A stretch of 64,000 nucleotides of DNA. It comes from Candidatus Woesearchaeota archaeon. Lineage in GTDB: Archaea; Nanobdellota; Nanobdellia; Woesearchaeales; ARS49. Where the stretch lies: assembly GCA_014729505.1 (NCBI GenBank), contig WJJS01000015.1:35300-99299 (forward strand). Direction: 5' to 3'. Under the pieces are notes generated by a model, which searched no databases, was not told where the DNA came from, and saw nothing but the letters and a program-made list of their open reading frames with translations. This document shows positions 1,690 to 64,000 of this stretch, in pieces; position 1 is the stretch's first letter, and each line of letters opens with the position of its first letter. A program made the position numbers and the translations under genes.

Positions 1690-1993
1690 CACGGTGTGAT
1701 AGCTCTTCAATATCGCTAAGCGAAGCGCCCTTCAATAACAATAATTCCGCAAGCTTATGCGTACTCTCCTTCCACGCCCCAAAATTAAAAATATAACTCT
1801 TAACCTGCACATCAATCTGTTCATTTTTCTGATTCCTGTTAAAAAAAATATCAAACGTATCAAAAGACATATGATCCCCATTATCCGTTAAGAATTTTCC
1901 AAGAGGAGAATCACGCTGATTGGCACAAGACACCATAATCTTTTCAAGCGCCTTTCGCGTGCGTGCCACTTCATCCATACGCAAAAAACACAA
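1661..1993 (-). CDS. hypothetical small protein
   Basis: 110-aa ORF filling the 410-bp gap between tatD and the true serS start; protein-like composition but no recognisable domain. Confidence 0.25.
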   Translation of the reverse strand: MCFLRMDEVARTRKALEKIMVSCANQRDSPLGKFLTDNGDHMSFDTFDIFFNRNQKNEQIDVQVKSYIFNFGAWKESTHKLAELLLLKGASLSDIEELSHRVIQTRADNS

Positions 1994-2100
1994 CTAACTC
2001 GTATAAAAGGTTTTTGAAAGTTGCAGACACGCTGCACAGACTAGCACAACACGCAAGACTCATACAAAAATATATAAACGAAGGTCAACCAAGAAGACAA

Positions 2101-3369
2101 ATGCTTGACATACATTATCTACGAGAACACGCACAAGAGGTCAAAGACAACCTCAAGAAGCGAAACGATCCGCAACTGCCGCCCATGGTAGATGAAGTGC
2201 TGGAACTCGACAAAGAATGGCGCGAAATCAAAAAAGAAGCAGATCAGCTTCGTCATGAACGCAACAAGATATCAAGCGAAATTAACAAAGCAGTAAAAGC
2301 AGGAAAACCAATCGATCAACTCAAGAAAAAAGCAAAAGACCTGCCAGAACAAATACAACACTACACAGAACAGATCACCGCTATCGAAAAGCACATGCGA
2401 GATCTTCTCCTGCGCATACCAAACATGCTGCACGACAGCGTACCCATAGGAACAGATGACTCTGATAACGAAGAAATCAAACGATGGGGGAAAACGCCAA
2501 CTCCCTCATTTCCACTCGTATCACACGCAGAACTGCTAGAACAACTCGGACAAGCAGATTTTGATAATGCGCGAAAAACATCAGGAGCAGGTTTTGTCTT
2601 CATACTCGACAAACTCGCAATGCTAGACCTGGCACTACAACGCTTTGCAATCGATCACTTACGCAACAAAGGATTCACACTCATCGCACCACCACTCATG
2701 ATGAGACGAGAAGCATACGAAGGAGTCACAGATCTCGGTGATTTTGAAAACGTCATGTACAAAATCGATAATGAAGACGAGTACCTGATCGCGACATCAG
2801 AACATCCCATCGCAGCACGACTCATGAACGACGTACTCGAAGAAAAAGAACTGCCACTCAAATTTGTCGGCGTCAGTCCCTGCTTTAGAAAAGAAATAGG
2901 CAGTCACGGCATCGATACAAAAGGATTGTTTCGCATGCACCAATTTAACAAAGTCGAACAATTCATCTTTTGCAAACCAGAACAATCATGGAAACTCCAC
3001 GAAGAACTTCAAAGGAACTCTGAAGAACTCTTTGAAGCTCTGGAGATTCCGTACCGTGTAGTCAACATTTGCACAGGAGACATAGGCATAGTCGCAGCAA
3101 AAAAATACGACATCGAAGCATGGTTTCCAAGAGAAGAAACATATCGGGAAGTCACGTCATGCTCAAACTGTACCTCATATCAGGCAGTACGGCTCAACAT
3201 TCGCTATCAAAAAGGCGAAGATCGCGAGTATATCCATACACTCAACAATACCGCCATTGCCACCTCTCGAGCACTGCGCGCGATAGTTGAACACTACCAA
3301 CAGCCTGATGGAACCATCAAGATACCAAAGGTCTTACAACCGTACTGCGGTTTTGATAAAATCGCATGA
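2101..3369 (+). CDS. serS: seryl-tRNA synthetase
   Basis: MLDIHYLRE... N-terminal coiled-coil arm followed by a class II core (motif 2/3 region ...FRKEIGSHGIDTKGLFRMHQFNKVE...); the ORF-track start at 1963 adds a non-SerRS extension, so the ATG at 2101 is preferred. Confidence 0.9.
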   Translation: MLDIHYLREHAQEVKDNLKKRNDPQLPPMVDEVLELDKEWREIKKEADQLRHERNKISSEINKAVKAGKPIDQLKKKAKDLPEQIQHYTEQITAIEKHMRDLLLRIPNMLHDSVPIGTDDSDNEEIKRWGKTPTPSFPLVSHAELLEQLGQADFDNARKTSGAGFVFILDKLAMLDLALQRFAIDHLRNKGFTLIAPPLMMRREAYEGVTDLGDFENVMYKIDNEDEYLIATSEHPIAARLMNDVLEEKELPLKFVGVSPCFRKEIGSHGIDTKGLFRMHQFNKVEQFIFCKPEQSWKLHEELQRNSEELFEALEIPYRVVNICTGDIGIVAAKKYDIEAWFPREETYREVTSCSNCTSYQAVRLNIRYQKGEDREYIHTLNNTAIATSRALRAIVEHYQQPDGTIKIPKVLQPYCGFDKIA

Positions 3370-4323: not shown

Positions 4324-5394
4324 ATGAGCTATTTCAAAGACTTTCTTGGAGCGGACGAGTCTTTGTTTCGCAACGAAGACGCGCTCGATTTAGAATGGTT
4401 ACCAAAAGTCATACCCTATCGTGAAGAACAACAACAACATATCGCGACATGTATTAAACCCCTCCTTGCAAAACGCAACGGAAAAAACCTGTTTATCTAC
4501 GGAGATCCAGGAATAGGAAAAACAGCGGCAACACGCTCACTGCTTCGTGATCTTGAAGAAACGACAGACGAAGTGGAAGGAGTCTACATCAATTGCTGGC
4601 AAAAAAACACCAGTTACAAAGTCTGCGTAGAAATCTGTCATCTGCTCGGATACAAATTTACACAAAACAAGAACACCGAAGAAATCTTTGCAATCATCAA
4701 AAACATCGTCAACAAAAAAGCAGCAGTGTTCGTATTTGACGAAACAGACAAAATAGAAGACTTTGACTTTCTCTACAGTATACTCAACGATATCTATCGT
4801 AAAACAGTCATCGTCATCACCAACTACAAAGAATGGCTTGGCAGTCTTGAACCGCGCATACGCAGCCGTCTCATGCCAGACATGCTCGAATTCAAAAAAT
4901 ACAGCGTCAACGAAATAGAAGGCATACTCAAACAACGAATAGACTACGCCTTTGTGCCAGGAGTATGGACTGGGCCGCTTATACGGCGCATCGCAGAAAA
5001 AACAGCGACGGTAGGAGATATCCGTGCAGGCATATACCTCCTGCGACAAACAGGCATGCTCGCAGACAATGAGGGATCAAAAAAGATTACCAACGAACAT
5101 GTAGAAGCCACGCTTGCAAAACTCGACGAACAAGGCATACAAAAACCAATGGATCTCGATGAAGAATCGCGCAACATCTTAACAGTCATCAAAGAACTCA
5201 GTCCGCGAAAAATAGGAGACTTATTTAGCGCGTACAAAGAAAAAGGTGGCGGAGCAACATACAAAACCTTCCAAAGAAAGATTGCCAAACTCGAAAAAGC
5301 AAAACTTATTTCTACGAACAAGATCATTGGTGGCAAAGAAGGAACAACAACAGTGATCACGTATGGTCGAGCAAAAACGTTAAGCGATTTCTAA
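4324..5394 (+). CDS. cdc6: Orc1/Cdc6 replication initiator
   Basis: AAA+ Walker A GDPGIGKT, Walker B VFVFDETD, C-terminal winged-helix region; archaeal Orc1/Cdc6 length and layout. Confidence 0.9.
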   Translation: MSYFKDFLGADESLFRNEDALDLEWLPKVIPYREEQQQHIATCIKPLLAKRNGKNLFIYGDPGIGKTAATRSLLRDLEETTDEVEGVYINCWQKNTSYKVCVEICHLLGYKFTQNKNTEEIFAIIKNIVNKKAAVFVFDETDKIEDFDFLYSILNDIYRKTVIVITNYKEWLGSLEPRIRSRLMPDMLEFKKYSVNEIEGILKQRIDYAFVPGVWTGPLIRRIAEKTATVGDIRAGIYLLRQTGMLADNEGSKKITNEHVEATLAKLDEQGIQKPMDLDEESRNILTVIKELSPRKIGDLFSAYKEKGGGATYKTFQRKIAKLEKAKLISTNKIIGGKEGTTTVITYGRAKTLSDF

Positions 5395-10617: not shown

Positions 10618-10947
10618 ATGGAATTAGAGACTCTCAAACTCGCACTAGTGCATTGTTGGGGCAAAGACACCAGTTATCCTCCAATGGAACACTCCTGGTC
10701 CTCAAAGAATCCAGCCTATGGACAATGCTTTGCAACAGCACTGCTCGTTCACGATTATTATGGCGGACAACTACTCAAAGCAAAATTTGCAGACGGAACC
10801 GCACATTTCTGGAATACCGTTAATTCAAAAGAAATAGACTTGACAAAATCACAATTCAATAAACAACAGATTCCACAACCAACACTGCACAGCCGTCAAG
10901 AAATAGACGAAAACCCCCGATACAAAGAATATCACAAAAGATACTGA
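10618..10947 (+). CDS. hypothetical protein
   Basis: 109-aa ORF; no confident family assignment. Confidence 0.4.
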   Translation: MELETLKLALVHCWGKDTSYPPMEHSWSSKNPAYGQCFATALLVHDYYGGQLLKAKFADGTAHFWNTVNSKEIDLTKSQFNKQQIPQPTLHSRQEIDENPRYKEYHKRY

Positions 10948-11034
10948 TTATTGAAAAAAAGAGTGGAAGAGTATTTGCAACAATAATTACTACCCATACT
11001 ATTCGTCTTGTACTCCTGAGAACGAAGTTGAGAT

Positions 11035-11241
11035 GTCGGAGTCTGGATTTTCTCCAGGACAGCGTCAAGCAGAGCTTGACTGGCCCCGGTTCAAATCATT
11101 ATAACAGAAAAATTTGAGCGCTTATGCGCCCACAACGCCGTCGCCCGGATTTGAAACCAGGACAGCGTCAAGCAGAGCTTGACTGGTCCCGGTCCAAATC
11201 ATTATAACAGAAAAAGTGGTGACGCTCTCGCGTCATAGAAA
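11035..11241. repeat. two tandem ~105-bp units, each carrying a degenerate copy of the tRNA-Ser 3' end plus a conserved 56-bp core and a variable hairpin+T5
   Basis: 11138-11163 cgccgtcgcccggatttgaaaccagg matches the tRNA-Ser 3' end (11242-11266) for 20 nt then diverges; 11035-11058 is a more degraded copy; 56-bp cores 11059-11115 and 11160-11215 are near-identical (3 mismatches). Confidence 0.7.
11211..11235 (-). terminator. hairpin plus T5 tract immediately 3' of tRNA-Ser
   Basis: Minus-strand TGACGC-GAGA-GCGTCA hairpin followed by CCACTTTTT; a similar hairpin+T5 (GGGCGC ATAA GCGCTC + TTTTT) follows the second repeat unit. Confidence 0.4.
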
Positions 11242-11325
11242 CGCCGTCGCCCGGATTTGAACCGGGATATCCGTAAGGAAACCAGCTTAGCAGGCTGGCG
11301 CAGTACCAGGTTGTGCCACGACGGC
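11242..11325 (-). tRNA. tRNA-Ser (anticodon GCU), class II with long variable arm
   Basis: Manual fold: acceptor GCCGTCG/CGACGGC, D stem GCA/TGC, anticodon stem CCAGC/GCTGG with loop CTGCTAA, variable stem-loop TCC-TTAC-GGA, T arm CCCGG-TTCAAAT-CCGGG, discriminator G; no encoded CCA. Confidence 0.75.
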
Positions 11326-11404
11326 AATGTACGACAAAGAAAGACAAATGGTTTTAAAGTTTTCTACTCGATAGGTTTTTAAGTATTGATGACTTACTGA
11401 AGTT

Positions 11405-41371: not shown

Positions 41372-41474
41372 TAAATATCACAAGGAATTATCGAGTTAAA
41401 AGAACATTTTTTATACGATAATTTGAAGTCGAAGGCAAACTTTTTCTAAAAGTTTGATCAAAAGAAGTGAGTAT

Positions 41475-41491
41475 GGGGACTTGTAGTCCCC
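41475..41491 (-). terminator. hairpin immediately 3' of tRNA-Ile
   Basis: GGGGACT-TGT-AGTCCCC perfect 7-bp stem. Confidence 0.35.
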
Positions 41492-41500
41492 AACGCTCTA

Positions 41501-44766: not shown

Positions 44767-44858
44767 GCCCGAGTAGTATAGTCTGGATAGTACGCACGGT
44801 TGCGGAAGAATACTTTTGCAAAATCCGTGTAACCGGGGTTCGAATCCTCGCTCGGGCA
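44767..44858 (+). tRNA. tRNA-Arg (GCG) with an 18-nt intron at 37/38
   Basis: Acceptor GCCCGAG/CTCGGGC, anticodon stem CACGG/CCGTG, loop TTGCGG|intron 44806-44823|T, T arm CGGGG-TTCGAAT-CCTCG, discriminator A. Confidence 0.7.
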
Positions 44859-45100
44859 TGTTTTACTTGTTAGATTTTCTTTGTTTTTCTATGGCTCGTC
44901 TTCGAACCCGGGTTCGTCACCTCGAAATCTGGGATTTCGCGGACCTCGAACACCTGTGGTGTTCAAGGAATCCTCGCTCGGGCATACTTACATTGCCTTT
45001 TGGGCTTTGTTTTGTTTTTCTATGGCTCGTCTTCGAACCCGGGTTCGTCACCTCGAAATCTGCGATTTCGCGAACCTGTTAGGCTGGAGAAAACACCAAT
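44859..45100. repeat. two tandem ~130-bp units downstream of tRNA-Arg, each with a ~70-bp conserved core (palindrome CGAACCCGGGTTCG plus a 7-bp-stem hairpin) and a partial copy of the tRNA-Arg 3' end
   Basis: Cores 44880-44945 and 45006-45075 differ at 2 positions; 44967-44983 gaatcctcgctcgggca duplicates the tRNA 3' end (44842-44858); hairpins CGAAATC-TGG-GATTTCG (44921-44938) and CGAAATC-TGC-GATTTCG (45051-45068). Confidence 0.7.
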
Positions 45101-54619: not shown

Positions 54620-54644
54620 GGACGCAAGGGTTTTTTCGCACAAC

Positions 54645-54739
54645 AGTCCCGTAGTGTAGTGGTCCTGCGCAAATCTGCGATTTGCTGGTCTCGCCTCGCA
54701 AGCTCGGCAAGAAATCATCAGGCACTTCATTACAACAAC
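54645..54739 (+). pseudogene. truncated duplicate of the tRNA-Gln 5' part with a 47-nt insertion carrying a GCAAATC-TGC-GATTTGC hairpin (likely leader of the tRNA-Gln transcript)
   Basis: 54645-54664 is identical to tRNA-Gln positions 1-20 (plus 4 upstream nt); after the insert, AATCATCAGGCACTT matches tRNA-Gln 21-35 with 1 mismatch; no T arm or 3' acceptor. Confidence 0.6.
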
Positions 54740-54812
54740 AGTCCCGTAGTGTAGTGGTCAATCATCTGGCACTTTGGATGCTAGGACGGCGGTTCGAATC
54801 CGCCCGGGACTA
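54740..54812 (+). tRNA. tRNA-Gln (UUG)
   Basis: Acceptor AGTCCCG/CGGGACT, anticodon stem TGGCA/TGCTA, loop CTTTGGA, T arm GGCGG-TTCGAAT-CCGCC, discriminator A. Confidence 0.75.
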
Positions 54813-61747: not shown

Positions 61748-64000
61748 ATGGTGATAAAAAAAGGGGCGACTATAGTTCTCTTCCTTTTATTTTGTAGTCT
61801 GGCAATGACTGCAGGCGCAATAGAAGTTGCCGATGAAGCGGCATGCGCAGGCACACCAGACCCCTCACAATATACGTATCCAGACAATTCAGGAGCGTGT
61901 TACCAAGCAGTACTTGCAAAAGCAAGCGATGCAGTCAAATGCTATTGCGCTGCAACAGGAAAATGCAGCGTGCCACGCTGTTCTTGTGCAACAAAACGAT
62001 CAACAGACGGGCATTTAAACATTGAATATGCCGAAAGTGATTTAGACGTTATAAAAGAATGCACTGGCAACCCTGCAGCAACAGGACTGTCAAGCCTCTT
62101 TGGAGCAGGCGACACGTTTATCGCTGATGACAGCACTGCAGGAGTACTCATCACTGATCCAGCACTCTGCGGCAACGGTGTCATAGATCCAGGAGAATCA
62201 TGCGATCCTAACAAAGCACCAACAGGATGCAGTGAACTACGCATCTGTGGCACACCAGCAGACCCGCGACCATGCAGGTGCACCTGTGATTATGAACGCA
62301 ACGCTGCAGGACAAGTCGTCAAAAAAAGCACAGGCGCCATAGGGGATCCCTGCAAAGGACGAGCAGCAGCAAACAAAGAATGGACATTCGACGAAGCATC
62401 ATGCACGTGCAAAGAAGTCTGTCAGGATAATCCACCAGTATCATTTACTCAAGCCAGTTGTCGCGCACAACATACGAGCAAAACAAAATGGAACGAAGAT
62501 ACCTGTGCATGCCTCTTCTGCGGCGACGGCACATACACTACAGATCCAGACGTGAGCTGTGACACCGTAGCAGGCACGGACCCGGTTGGCGCATTTGCCT
62601 GTTCGTACAAAGAAGAATGTAACGCACTGACATGCGGATGCGATTTCTGCACTGACGGCGTCAAAGCCTCATTACTCGCCGATTGTCAAATAGAAGCCTT
62701 CATTGAAGATATAGATCTCATGATGGATCCAGGAAACTGGCTATATGATTACCGCATACCAGGAAGAAATCCTGCACTACATCATAAACGAGTCAATTTC
62801 GCATCCTTGAAGATTGCAAATGATTGTAGCAAATGCACCTGGTCATACATCATCACCAATCCACCGCGCCCACCACCAGGATGGATGCCGCCAGGAGGAT
62901 GGCCCATTCCTTTACCACCACCATGGCTTGGACCCGCACCACTCAATATTACATCAACAAACGTGACCCCTGTCAATGCAACACCGCCCAACATGACAGG
63001 AAATATCAGACCAGTAAACGTGACACCACCAAACGGTACAGGGGGAGTCATCTTTACTGACACGGACGGCGATACCATTTACGATTTTGCAGACAATTGC
63101 GTTCTCATACCAAACGCGCAACAAGAAGACTGGGATCTCGACGGTATTGGAGATGTGTGCGACAATTGTATATATTTTTTGAACCCAACACAAGCAGATA
63201 CAGACACTGATACGTACGGCGATGCATGCGACCTCTGCCCGACAGAAGATGATCGCATCGATACAAACGGCAATGGTGTTCCAGACTGTCTAGAAGGGCC
63301 ATCACCGCCGCCAACACCATGGTGTACTGACGCAGACAATGACGGACTCTACGTCTATACCGCAACAGGCAACGCGACTATGCCGCCAGGAGCAAGCTTC
63401 AGTTGCGCAGTACAAGGACATTACGACTGTGATGATACAGACCCATTACAAACAAGCGAGTTTTTACCAGAAGCATGCGACGGTTACGACAATAATTGCA
63501 ACGGACTCGTCGATGACGGACTAGGCAATCTCACGTGCGGACAAGGCATTTTTGAAAACACCGTACCGGCATGCGTGAATGGACAAGCACAACTCTGCAC
63601 ACCAAAAGATGCATGCCCCAATGACCCGCAACGCGATGCAGATCAAGACGGCATCTGTGGCGACGTCGATAATTGCCCGCTCATAGGAAATCCCAGTCAA
63701 GCAGATGACGATAATGACGGCATAGGAAATGCATGCGATAACAATACCATCGTCAATACACCTACCTGCGGCAGTGTCACCGTTACCAGTCCATCAGGAT
63801 CCATAGGAATCAATTGTCCAACAGGATCTGGAGGGTCCCGACGGGGAGGATCAGTAACAGTAAGCAATATCACTGTTGGTTATCCAGAACTTAGCGTCGA
63901 GATCAGCTGTTTAAAAACGATCATCAGCACACCATATATCTGTGTTGAAGAAGGACTGAACAGTATCACATATACGCAAATCCTGCCAGGAGACGAAGAG
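61748..64000 (+). CDS. large secreted cysteine-rich surface protein with myxococcal-type Cys-rich repeats and thrombospondin type-3-like Ca-binding repeats; 3' end outside window (not in ORF track)
   Basis: Manually translated frame 2 is open from the ATG at 61748 to the window end (>750 codons): signal peptide MVIKKGATIVLFLLFCSLAMTAGA; CGNGVIDPGESCDPN repeat; TSP3-like DTDGDTIYDFADNC..DLDGIGDVCDNC, DTDTDTYGDACDLC, DADQDGICGDVDNCP, DDDNDGIGNACDN; the minus-strand ORFs listed inside it are antisense artefacts. Confidence 0.7.
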   Translation, partial: MVIKKGATIVLFLLFCSLAMTAGAIEVADEAACAGTPDPSQYTYPDNSGACYQAVLAKASDAVKCYCAATGKCSVPRCSCATKRSTDGHLNIEYAESDLDVIKECTGNPAATGLSSLFGAGDTFIADDSTAGVLITDPALCGNGVIDPGESCDPNKAPTGCSELRICGTPADPRPCRCTCDYERNAAGQVVKKSTGAIGDPCKGRAAANKEWTFDEASCTCKEVCQDNPPVSFTQASCRAQHTSKTKWNEDTCACLFCGDGTYTTDPDVSCDTVAGTDPVGAFACSYKEECNALTCGCDFCTDGVKASLLADCQIEAFIEDIDLMMDPGNWLYDYRIPGRNPALHHKRVNFASLKIANDCSKCTWSYIITNPPRPPPGWMPPGGWPIPLPPPWLGPAPLNITSTNVTPVNATPPNMTGNIRPVNVTPPNGTGGVIFTDTDGDTIYDFADNCVLIPNAQQEDWDLDGIGDVCDNCIYFLNPTQADTDTDTYGDACDLCPTEDDRIDTNGNGVPDCLEGPSPPPTPWCTDADNDGLYVYTATGNATMPPGASFSCAVQGHYDCDDTDPLQTSEFLPEACDGYDNNCNGLVDDGLGNLTCGQGIFENTVPACVNGQAQLCTPKDACPNDPQRDADQDGICGDVDNCPLIGNPSQADDDNDGIGNACDNNTIVNTPTCGSVTVTSPSGSIGINCPTGSGGSRRGGSVTVSNITVGYPELSVEISCLKTIISTPYICVEEGLNSITYTQILPGDEE

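Follow-up and report, generated by a model that had tools for sequence, protein, structure and literature searches.

Why should a tRNA gene be followed by further copies of its own 3' end? The question is raised by the tRNA-Ser(GCU) gene in a 64 kb stretch of DNA (the window) from a metagenome-assembled genome (MAG) of Woesearchaeota (DPANN), behind which lie two tandem units of about 105 nt, each made up of a hairpin followed by five T residues (T5), a 59-nt core and a copy of the tRNA 3' end (Table 1; coordinates of the Ser locus refer to the minus strand). The answer that we favour, with confidence standing at about an even balance, is that recombination at the tRNA 3' end, repeated over time, left the units behind as DNA-level footprints of the attachment-site (att) type, and that they are not RNA genes. 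The arrangement recurs at other tRNAs and in other DPANN lineages, and the relatives show polymorphism for units, an empty site and a hybrid tRNA.

A preliminary description of the locus had recognized an intact tRNA-Ser on the minus strand, followed twice by the order hairpin with T5, core and tRNA 3' end. Both ARAGORN and Rfam recover the gene, and a repeat search returned the same tandem order at slightly shifted coordinates. The gene has the acceptor stem GCCGTCG/CGACGGC and the T-arm CCCGG-TTCAAAT-CCGGG, and CCA is not encoded. Its end is duplicated as a 22-nt exact repeat, TTCAAATCCGGGCGACGGCGTT, at 11240-11261 and 11134-11155 (spacing 106), which spans T54 of the T-loop through G73 and two trailer bases; the copy reported earlier as a 20-nt match at 11138-11163 is real, with these corrected limits. 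The cores had been given as 56 bp at 11160-11215 and 11059-11115, and their near-identity stands (57/59 identical, spacing 103), whereas their length and limits had to be revised. Sub-patterns of the core occur only at these two places in the 64 kb, and 0 of 100 shuffles gave as many. The second copy of the tRNA end is more degraded, as had been claimed; its 16/27 identity is counted in the register set by the unit, it has no TTC and it keeps a small T-arm-like hairpin, while the T-loop of copy 1 has 8 nt. The similarity to the tRNA end is far above chance, and an explanation by fortuitous resemblance, which the earlier account had allowed for, did not hold. The hairpin segments of the two trailers differ, again as described: their sequences are unrelated, both are stable and both have T5 behind them, trailer 1 being terminator-like and unique to unit 1. 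These hairpin and T5 modules probably define tRNA terminators.

Two properties of this layout carry the comparison with attachment sites. A tRNA segment from loop to end is duplicated while one intact gene is kept, and the two units stand in tandem as segments bounded by putative att sites, with the conserved 59-nt core immediately upstream of each copy. The attachment-site-like footprint proposed at the outset is borne out in that the block of identity begins inside the T-loop and ends just past the gene, a layout documented for integrases (PMC8371274) and for ssrA islands (PMC3146451). The repeat measures about 85 nt and is partly tRNA-derived, with about 80 bp between repeats and no gene-bearing foreign DNA there; an open reading frame (ORF) at 10856-11068 has no Pfam match. 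A CRISPR array was considered and rejected: such a long, partly tRNA-derived repeat is present in only two units, there are no cas domains, and the lone CRISPR-DR match in Rfam, at another place in the window, scores far below threshold.

Table 1. Positions of the tRNA genes and of the repeated segments beside them in the window
Feature	Position	Strand	Evidence
Intact tRNA-Ser(GCU)	11242..11325	-	ARAGORN; Rfam RF00005 55.7 bits
Trailer 1: hairpin TGACGC-GAGA-GCGTCA (11235-11220), then T5 (11215-11211)	11211..11241	-	Sequence; fold -9.3 kcal/mol, z -3.7
Core copy 1 (59 nt): TTTTTCTGTTATAAT, inverted T-arm GATTTGGACCGGG (11200-11188), hairpin GTCAAGC-TCT-GCTTGAC (11183-11167), GCTGT, CCTGG	11157..11215	-	Repeat search
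tRNA 3'-end copy 1: imperfect T-stem 5' strand CCTGG and an extra T, then 22-nt exact copy (11155-11134) of T54-G73 and TT	11134..11161	-	Repeat search
Trailer 2: hairpin GGGCGC-ATAA-GCGCTC (11131-11116), then T5 (11112-11108)	11108..11133	-	Sequence; fold -11.1 kcal/mol, z -4.1
Core copy 2 (57/59 identical to copy 1): inverted T-arm GATTTGAACCGGG (11097-11085), hairpin (11080-11064)	11054..11112	-	Repeat search; fold
Degraded tRNA-end copy 2: CCTGG-AGAAAAT-CCAGA-CTCCGACA	11032..11058	-	16/27 identical to tRNA end, binomial p ~7e-4
Intron-containing tRNA, probably Arg-GCG (44767-44858), and two tandem units	44767..45085	+	Rfam; missed by ARAGORN
tRNA-Gln (54740-54812) and 5'-side copy	54641..54812	+	ARAGORN; repeat comparison

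Each core also carries a feature absent from the preliminary description, the reverse complement of the T-stem 5' strand and T-loop of the tRNA (GATTTGGACCGGG or GATTTGAACCGGG). These inverted T-arm copies are 13-14 nt long and 93-100% complementary to the tRNA, with 13/13 for GATTTGAACCGGG (p ~0.01 against shuffles). Because the core holds the inverted copy, each unit can fold into a long two-storey hairpin composed of the inverted copy, the hairpin GTCAAGC-TCT-GCTTGAC and the direct T-arm copy (z = -5.4 per unit), and in the minimum free energy (MFE) fold of the whole locus the T-arm of the tRNA itself pairs with the first inverted copy. Between hairpin and tRNA-end copy lies the motif CGCTG(T), at 11062-11066 and 11162-11166 (minus strand). 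Counting the window together with the junctions of L003, L014 and L026 (L numbers denote loci of relatives), this succession of hairpin and CGCTG(T) before the copy is seen in three independent lineages, and the tRNAs concerned are Ser, Ala and one other.

Whether the architecture occurs at other tRNAs had been posed as a question, and the window itself gives an affirmative answer at the probable tRNA-Arg and at tRNA-Gln. Arg unit 1 (44859-44985) contains an inverted and a direct T-arm half with two hairpins at T-loop position 57/58, and closes with an 18-nt exact copy of the tRNA end (44968-44985); unit 2 is partial, and the 67-nt blocks 44880-44946 and 45011-45077 are 97% identical. At tRNA-Gln the copy is on the 5' side, where 24 nt at 54641-54664 exactly repeat four leader bases and positions 1-20 of the tRNA (to the D-loop), 95 nt upstream. 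A TATA-like box precedes this distal copy, so that the primary transcript would carry a pseudo-5' end. The Gln insert has a hairpin, GCAAATC-TGC-GATTTGC (54669-54685), with 13 nt in common with the hairpin of Arg unit 2 about 10 kb away, and the palindromic apex pattern AAATCNNNGATTT has three matches in the window, all at the Arg and Gln flanks, against 0.15 expected. Donor sequences for the inserts were sought elsewhere in the window, but apart from the repeats and the 13-nt apex that recurs in the Gln insert there were none. Each hairpin type has two to three copies in the 64 kb, and the hairpins form no single large family. Beside these loci, at 41436-41492 (minus strand), two perfect hairpins, TGGGGACT-ACA-AGTCCCCA and CAAACTTTT-AGA-AAAAGTTTG, lie 8 nt downstream of a tRNA-Ile without any tRNA-end copy. 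Hairpin pairs may be the usual tRNA trailer in the source genome.

Relatives were fetched by scanning species-representative genomes and Joint Genome Institute (JGI) metagenomes for the 20-nt end of the tRNA-Ser. The scan gave 27 archaeal loci, which represent 20 distinct tRNA-Ser loci besides the window, nearly all from Woesearchaeota or Nanoarchaeota. Partial tRNA copies within about 60-130 nt were found at 10 of the 21 distinct DPANN tRNA-Ser loci (window included). They lie on the 3' side in the window, the L003/L014/L020/L034 group, L028, L031, L008, L011 and L013/L021, and on the 5' side in L002, L006, L032 and also L013/L021. Among 22 tRNAs outside this selection, 6 have 14 nt of their own end repeated at a distance of at most 300 nt, where about 0.004 per tRNA would be expected by chance. 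L031 has a period of 105 nt and has TTTTTCTGT in common with the window. In L003, L028 and the Arg unit of the window one architecture recurs (inverted T-arm half, direct half, two hairpins between T-loop positions 57/58, and finally the remainder of the T-arm with the acceptor 3' strand), and it folds into three consecutive hairpins. The start of the copied block differs by locus (tRNA positions ~46, 54, 58 and 60-66), and its length ranges from 8 to 27 nt.

An assembly artefact is hardly a credible source of this pattern. The window does derive from a MAG, and short tandem repeats are prone to mis-assembly, but the trailers of the two units differ, and an identical repeat has therefore been neither collapsed nor expanded; moreover, the architecture recurs in independent assemblies of different projects (L003, L014, L020, L034, L028 and L031).

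The core, for which a wider search had been suggested, was not found elsewhere: the pattern AGTCAAGCNNNGCTTGACGCTGTCC gave 0 matches in the genome, viral and metagenome collections, from which the source MAG is absent, and these collections therefore offer no evidence of a multi-copy or mobile core. Homologues of the neighbouring YunG-like gene in the collections are only 49% identical, and Rhomboid homologues reach at most 56% identity, on contigs (L037-L042) without the tRNA-Met / tRNA-Ser neighbourhood; the collections thus contain no close relative of this locus. The only syntenic relative, L006, with the gene for seryl-tRNA synthetase (SerRS) nearby, has a tRNA-Ser(GCU) without such units. 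In the window, the genes for SerRS (1963-3369, plus strand) and Orc1/Cdc6 (4324-5394, plus strand) lie 6-9 kb from tRNA-Ser(GCU), and a replication origin may be close to this region; SerRS stands near tRNA-Ser(GCU) in L006 as well. The window also holds aIF5B and intron-containing tRNAs missed by ARAGORN.

Closely related genomes reveal how such loci change. Among four assemblies that are ~98% identical, L034 is without exactly one 65-nt unit that L003, L020 and L014 have. At tRNA-Ala(CGC) (L003:7400-7700, minus strand; L014:820-1000, plus strand) the site is empty in L014 and holds two inserts in L003, whose terminal parts copy 13 nt and 8 nt of the gene end; the ~98% identity of L003 and L014 applies to the aligned tRNA-Ser region, and the tRNA-Ala flanks are more diverged by eye. 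One hairpin differs between L003 and L014 at 10 of 23 positions, with a perfect 9-bp stem kept and otherwise identical flanks; the replacing L014 hairpin belongs to a palindrome family, TCGGNAA...TTNCCGA, that is clustered at L014:540-625. The identity of L013 and L021 ends exactly with the distal copy, beyond which the two sequences are unrelated. Since near-identical genomes thus differ by a unit, an empty site, a hairpin swap and a change of flank, we read the pattern at the level of DNA.

Two further cases involve the tRNA body, and the first is the most telling of all. In L011 the acceptor strand of the body, GCCACCG, has two mismatches to the proximal 3' end CGACGGC and matches perfectly the displaced distal CGGTGGC. 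Insertion of DNA with a foreign tRNA end yields such a hybrid; in-place copying cannot. In L013:1840-2120 (minus strand) and L021:1195-1470 (plus strand), a 5' fragment (positions 1-47) and a 3' fragment (T-arm and acceptor) of a tRNA-Ser(UGA) flank a complete second tRNA-Ser(UGA). The flanking fragments are those of an older tRNA of the L011 type, and the inner gene is bracketed by a perfect 12-bp leader/trailer complement, AAAAAATTCGCC / GGCGAATTTTTT.

Some additional observations were made at these loci. Similar inserts, TCACGT(T)AGTGAGGACC..., are present at both tRNA-Ala genes of L003, and the T-stem closing pair of tRNA-Ala differs between L003 and L014. At L014:540-625 (plus strand) four or five consecutive palindromes of one family stand at a gene end, in the manner of repetitive extragenic palindromes (REPs) or bacterial interspersed mosaic elements (BIMEs). 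In L032 (9273-9400, plus strand) a tRNA-Ser 5' fragment with two hairpins in its D-loop lies just upstream of the intact gene; its terminal palindromic junction, CCTGGAAAG-TAA-TTTCCAGG, is made of anticodon-loop sequence.

In the recombination model that we favour, a DNA segment with its own T-loop-to-3'-end stretch, terminator hairpin and T5 would recombine in or near the T-arm of the tRNA. The tRNA body would keep a complete 3' end, and the earlier 3' end would come to lie farther out, behind the 59-nt core, which would represent the conserved right end of the incoming DNA. Such displacement would have taken place at least twice at tRNA-Ser(GCU), and the array may later gain or lose units by recombination between direct repeats and have its hairpin segments replaced from related copies. 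This order of events is our reconstruction from the present sequences. A site-specific recombinase encoded elsewhere would be responsible, homology-anchored insertion of foreign DNA being the alternative, and the units would have no function beyond supplying the tRNA terminator.

The target is one that integrases are known to use. Archaeal and bacterial integrases, among the archaeal ones those of the SSV, pNOB8, pTN3 and pT26-2 types, target either the T stem-loop or the 3' end, the pTN3 type acting instead on the 5' half, and the intact gene is restored (PMC8371274). Sites of this kind fit both the 3' copies and the 5' copies (Gln; L002, L006 and L032), and both tRNA-Ser(GCU) and tRNA-Ser(UGA) are documented targets of pT26-2-type integrases (PMC8371274). 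As in archaeal integrative elements, one complete and one partial tRNA copy stand as direct repeats in the window. The described archaeal cases, however, enclose 9-23 kb of foreign DNA with an integrase gene (Thermococcaceae survey, bioRxiv 10.1101/2022.07.05.498093), and their repeats are typically ~40-50 bp, whereas the window units are of ~100 bp, tandem, gene-free and equipped with inverted T-arm copies and hairpin pairs.

The closest precedent is provided by the tandem ssrA islands of Dehalococcoides. There the islands insert in the T-loop, and 20-bp repeats of the end of the ssrA gene delimit them; each repeat is immediately preceded by a conserved motif that derives from the element, and islands without autonomy, formed by accretion and considered 'cis-mobilizable', also occur (PMC3146451). 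In both systems a stable RNA gene is followed by tandem segments, each ending in a 3'-end repeat of about 20 bp with a conserved motif upstream. The ssrA islands measure several kb to tens of kb, carry genes and have a serine recombinase gene, dsiB, overlapping attL (PMC3146451). The window units, in contrast, are about 100 times smaller (60-130 bp) and gene-free, with no recombinase in 64 kb, and the DPANN units occur at many different tRNAs and also on the 5' side. No description of ~100-bp tandem gene-free tRNA-end units in DPANN was found in the literature searched.

Several results weigh against recombination scars. No integrase, Y1 transposase or phage-like protein was detected among the ~60 window ORFs by Pfam or PHROG scan, in agreement with the earlier remark that the window has no integrase. 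Nor was a recombinase present among 71 neighbours of the related loci or among the 10 genes, of housekeeping function, that adjoin units. The tRNA-Ser and tRNA-Arg end sequences were absent from the viral contigs scanned, no virus or plasmid carrying the site was found, and the core, as stated above, is missing from every collection scanned. The inserted DNA is only ~60-130 bp and organized alike each time, unlike random deletion remnants of kb-sized elements. That the copied block starts at varying positions speaks against a single recombinase acting at a single crossover point. The model also gives no role to the inverted T-arm copies and to the hairpin pairs at T-loop 57/58, which appear in Ser and Arg units of different lineages, and no explanation of the CGCTG(T) motif. 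Finally, core 2 shares 97% identity with core 1, but for the distal end next to it the identity to the tRNA end falls to 59%, and the two values therefore do not both reflect neutral drift over equal time. The decay gradient that had been taken as a mark of serial integration is inconsistent with these figures: 'older' cannot be equated with 'more degraded' by simple neutral decay, unless homogenization or selection acted on the cores, or what is called the distal copy was from the start no more than a pseudo-site resembling a T-arm. Simple serial integration likewise leaves the inverted copy, the motif and the variable copied length unaccounted for. Of the two options first offered, miniature elements or scars, scars are the best reading, and mobility of ~105-bp elements is conjecture.

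It is nevertheless possible, if doubtful, that DPANN archaea host a class of miniature insertions, 60-130 bp long, gene-free and hairpin-rich, that target tRNA loops or ends and duplicate the displaced segment on both sides and at many isoacceptors, with an enzyme not encoded nearby to mobilize or generate them and with mosaic, nested and fragmented tRNA genes as products. Such a class would have a conserved junction grammar: T-arm halves in both orientations, paired hairpins at T-loop position 57/58 and, ahead of the copy, a hairpin with CGCTG(T) behind it.

Local duplication in the absence of mobile DNA is an explanation that we regard as rather unlikely. A break or a stalled fork at the structured tRNA end would be followed by slippage or template switching, in which neighbouring sequence is copied in both orientations, and then by unequal exchange, with REP-like turnover of palindromes. 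It would accommodate the direct and inverted T-arm copies at Ser and Arg, each of which matches its own tRNA, the variable duplicated length and the palindromic junctions at fragment edges (TGAACCGG-T-CCCGGTTCA in L003 and L028, and the L032 junction given above). The palindrome families are genome-specific, that of the L014:540-625 cluster being the family of the Ser-unit hairpin of L014, and a recombinase was found neither in window ORFs nor beside related loci. Local copying, on the other hand, could not place a foreign-type 3' end on the resident L011 tRNA body. The trailers are unrelated though the cores are 97% identical, at both Ser and Arg, which is not uniform tandem duplication; the 13-nt apex common to the Arg and Gln inserts and the CGCTG(T) junction motif common to three lineages also speak against it. 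In its plainest form, as simple slippage, duplication was rejected: the cores are 97% and the 22-mer 100% identical, yet the trailers cannot be aligned, and the same holds at Arg.

The part assigned here to palindrome turnover recalls a bacterial system. REP/BIME extragenic palindromes are mobilized in bacteria by REP-associated tyrosine transposases (RAYT), of the Y1 type. The units resemble them in being short imperfect palindromes in genome-specific families that cluster at gene ends and turn over fast (L014:540-625; the L003/L014 swap). The window, however, has no Y1_Tnp match and its hairpins form no large family. To our knowledge, REPs do not duplicate the end of the neighbouring gene.

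Could the units instead act as RNA? Folding, a point raised at the outset, gave stable structures far beyond shuffles (z -3.2 to -5.4), and a functional structured trailer or small RNA, in which the hairpin with U5 ends the tRNA transcript and the long hairpin or T-arm antisense acts on tRNA processing, tRNA-binding enzymes or termination under selection for the fold, deserves consideration, although we consider it improbable. Hairpins change sequence and yet stay paired (L003 vs. L014; L011 vs. L013; L028 unit 1 vs. unit 2), the T-arm of the tRNA pairs with the first inverted copy in the MFE fold, and L003 and L028 have no T-run between tRNA and units, which would thus be co-transcribed. Stem mismatches are mostly G-T on the tRNA strand (~7 G-T vs. 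2 C-A), which is weak evidence. DNA-level processes are, however, equally expected to give perfect palindromes; in Rfam at E <= 10 the tRNA alone was matched and the units had no family; and the last unit of each array is truncated or degenerate. The units come and go between near-identical genomes and are missing at the syntenic tRNA-Ser(GCU) of L006, so that the conserved, non-mobile trailer that the preliminary description had named as its counter-case is not seen. The promoter-like TTATAAT would start transcription inside a hairpin, judged by archaeal TATA-to-start spacing, and an independent small-RNA gene from this element was, on that ground, rejected as the principal interpretation.

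The distal copies might also be spare or alternative 3' exons, which the archaeal splicing endonuclease and a ligase would attach to the tRNA body. DPANN are reported to have split tRNAs and broad-specificity endonucleases (PMC3239211, PMC5829648), the L011 5' acceptor strand is matched only by the distal 3' end, and the inner tRNA of L013 is flanked by the 12-bp leader/trailer helix. Yet strict and relaxed scans found no bulge-helix-bulge (BHB) motif that would join the distal end to the tRNA body with a continuous T-arm, in the window and five relatives (L003, L008, L011, L013 and L028); the strict scan missed canonical introns with 2-bp inner helices, and this negative is not exhaustive for very relaxed motifs. 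L031 has one marginal 2-bp BHB candidate, which gave a wrong junction. The 8-nt T-loop of copy 1 and the missing TTC of copy 2 are unfavourable as well, and the spliced product would be the same tRNA as that of the intact adjacent gene. We therefore hold alternative exons to be very improbable.

Two lesser candidates were also discarded. The 106-nt period is close to that of an 84-nt tRNA with a spacer, but the units are not decayed whole copies of tRNA-Ser: comparison of the cores with the 5' part of the tRNA gave p = 0.41 and 0.17, and in other lineages the period does not vary with the length of the tRNA. A match resembling GCCGTCG at 62530 is due to chance and lies inside a coding sequence.

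Disrupted tRNA genes bring a further archaeal system into view. For Caldiarchaeum, tRNA disruption by integration of a mobile element has been proposed, where a 1.8-kb insert encodes a recombinase and the outcome is intron gain (Sugahara et al. 2012, PMC3293823). Strain-level heterogeneity, a tRNA fragment beside an intact copy and a tRNA interrupted by an insert (L013, L021) are common to that case and to the relatives studied here, in which, by comparison, there is no recombinase, no BHB at the junctions and no sign that the fragments are used. The arrangement in L013 and L021 resembles a disruption of the Caldiarchaeum type in miniature.

Partial tRNA copies are a standard marker for delimiting integrated viruses and plasmids, and here the signature is present without the element, at a quarter to half of the tRNAs sampled from Woesearchaeota and Nanoarchaeota. 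For annotation this means that tRNA finders may report the fragments as tRNAs. If the units are scars, tRNA ends in these tiny genomes would often be replaced, the mismatched hybrid acceptor stem of L011 being an example, and searches for islands based on tRNA repeats will mis-call such loci. If they are small mobile or self-generated modules, they would provide a concrete way, at the level of populations, for tRNA genes to become mosaic, nested or fragmented. The origin of archaeal disrupted tRNA genes, including those with introns and split tRNAs, is still debated, and a class of miniature insertions, if it exists, would offer a live view of how disrupted and split tRNA genes arise.

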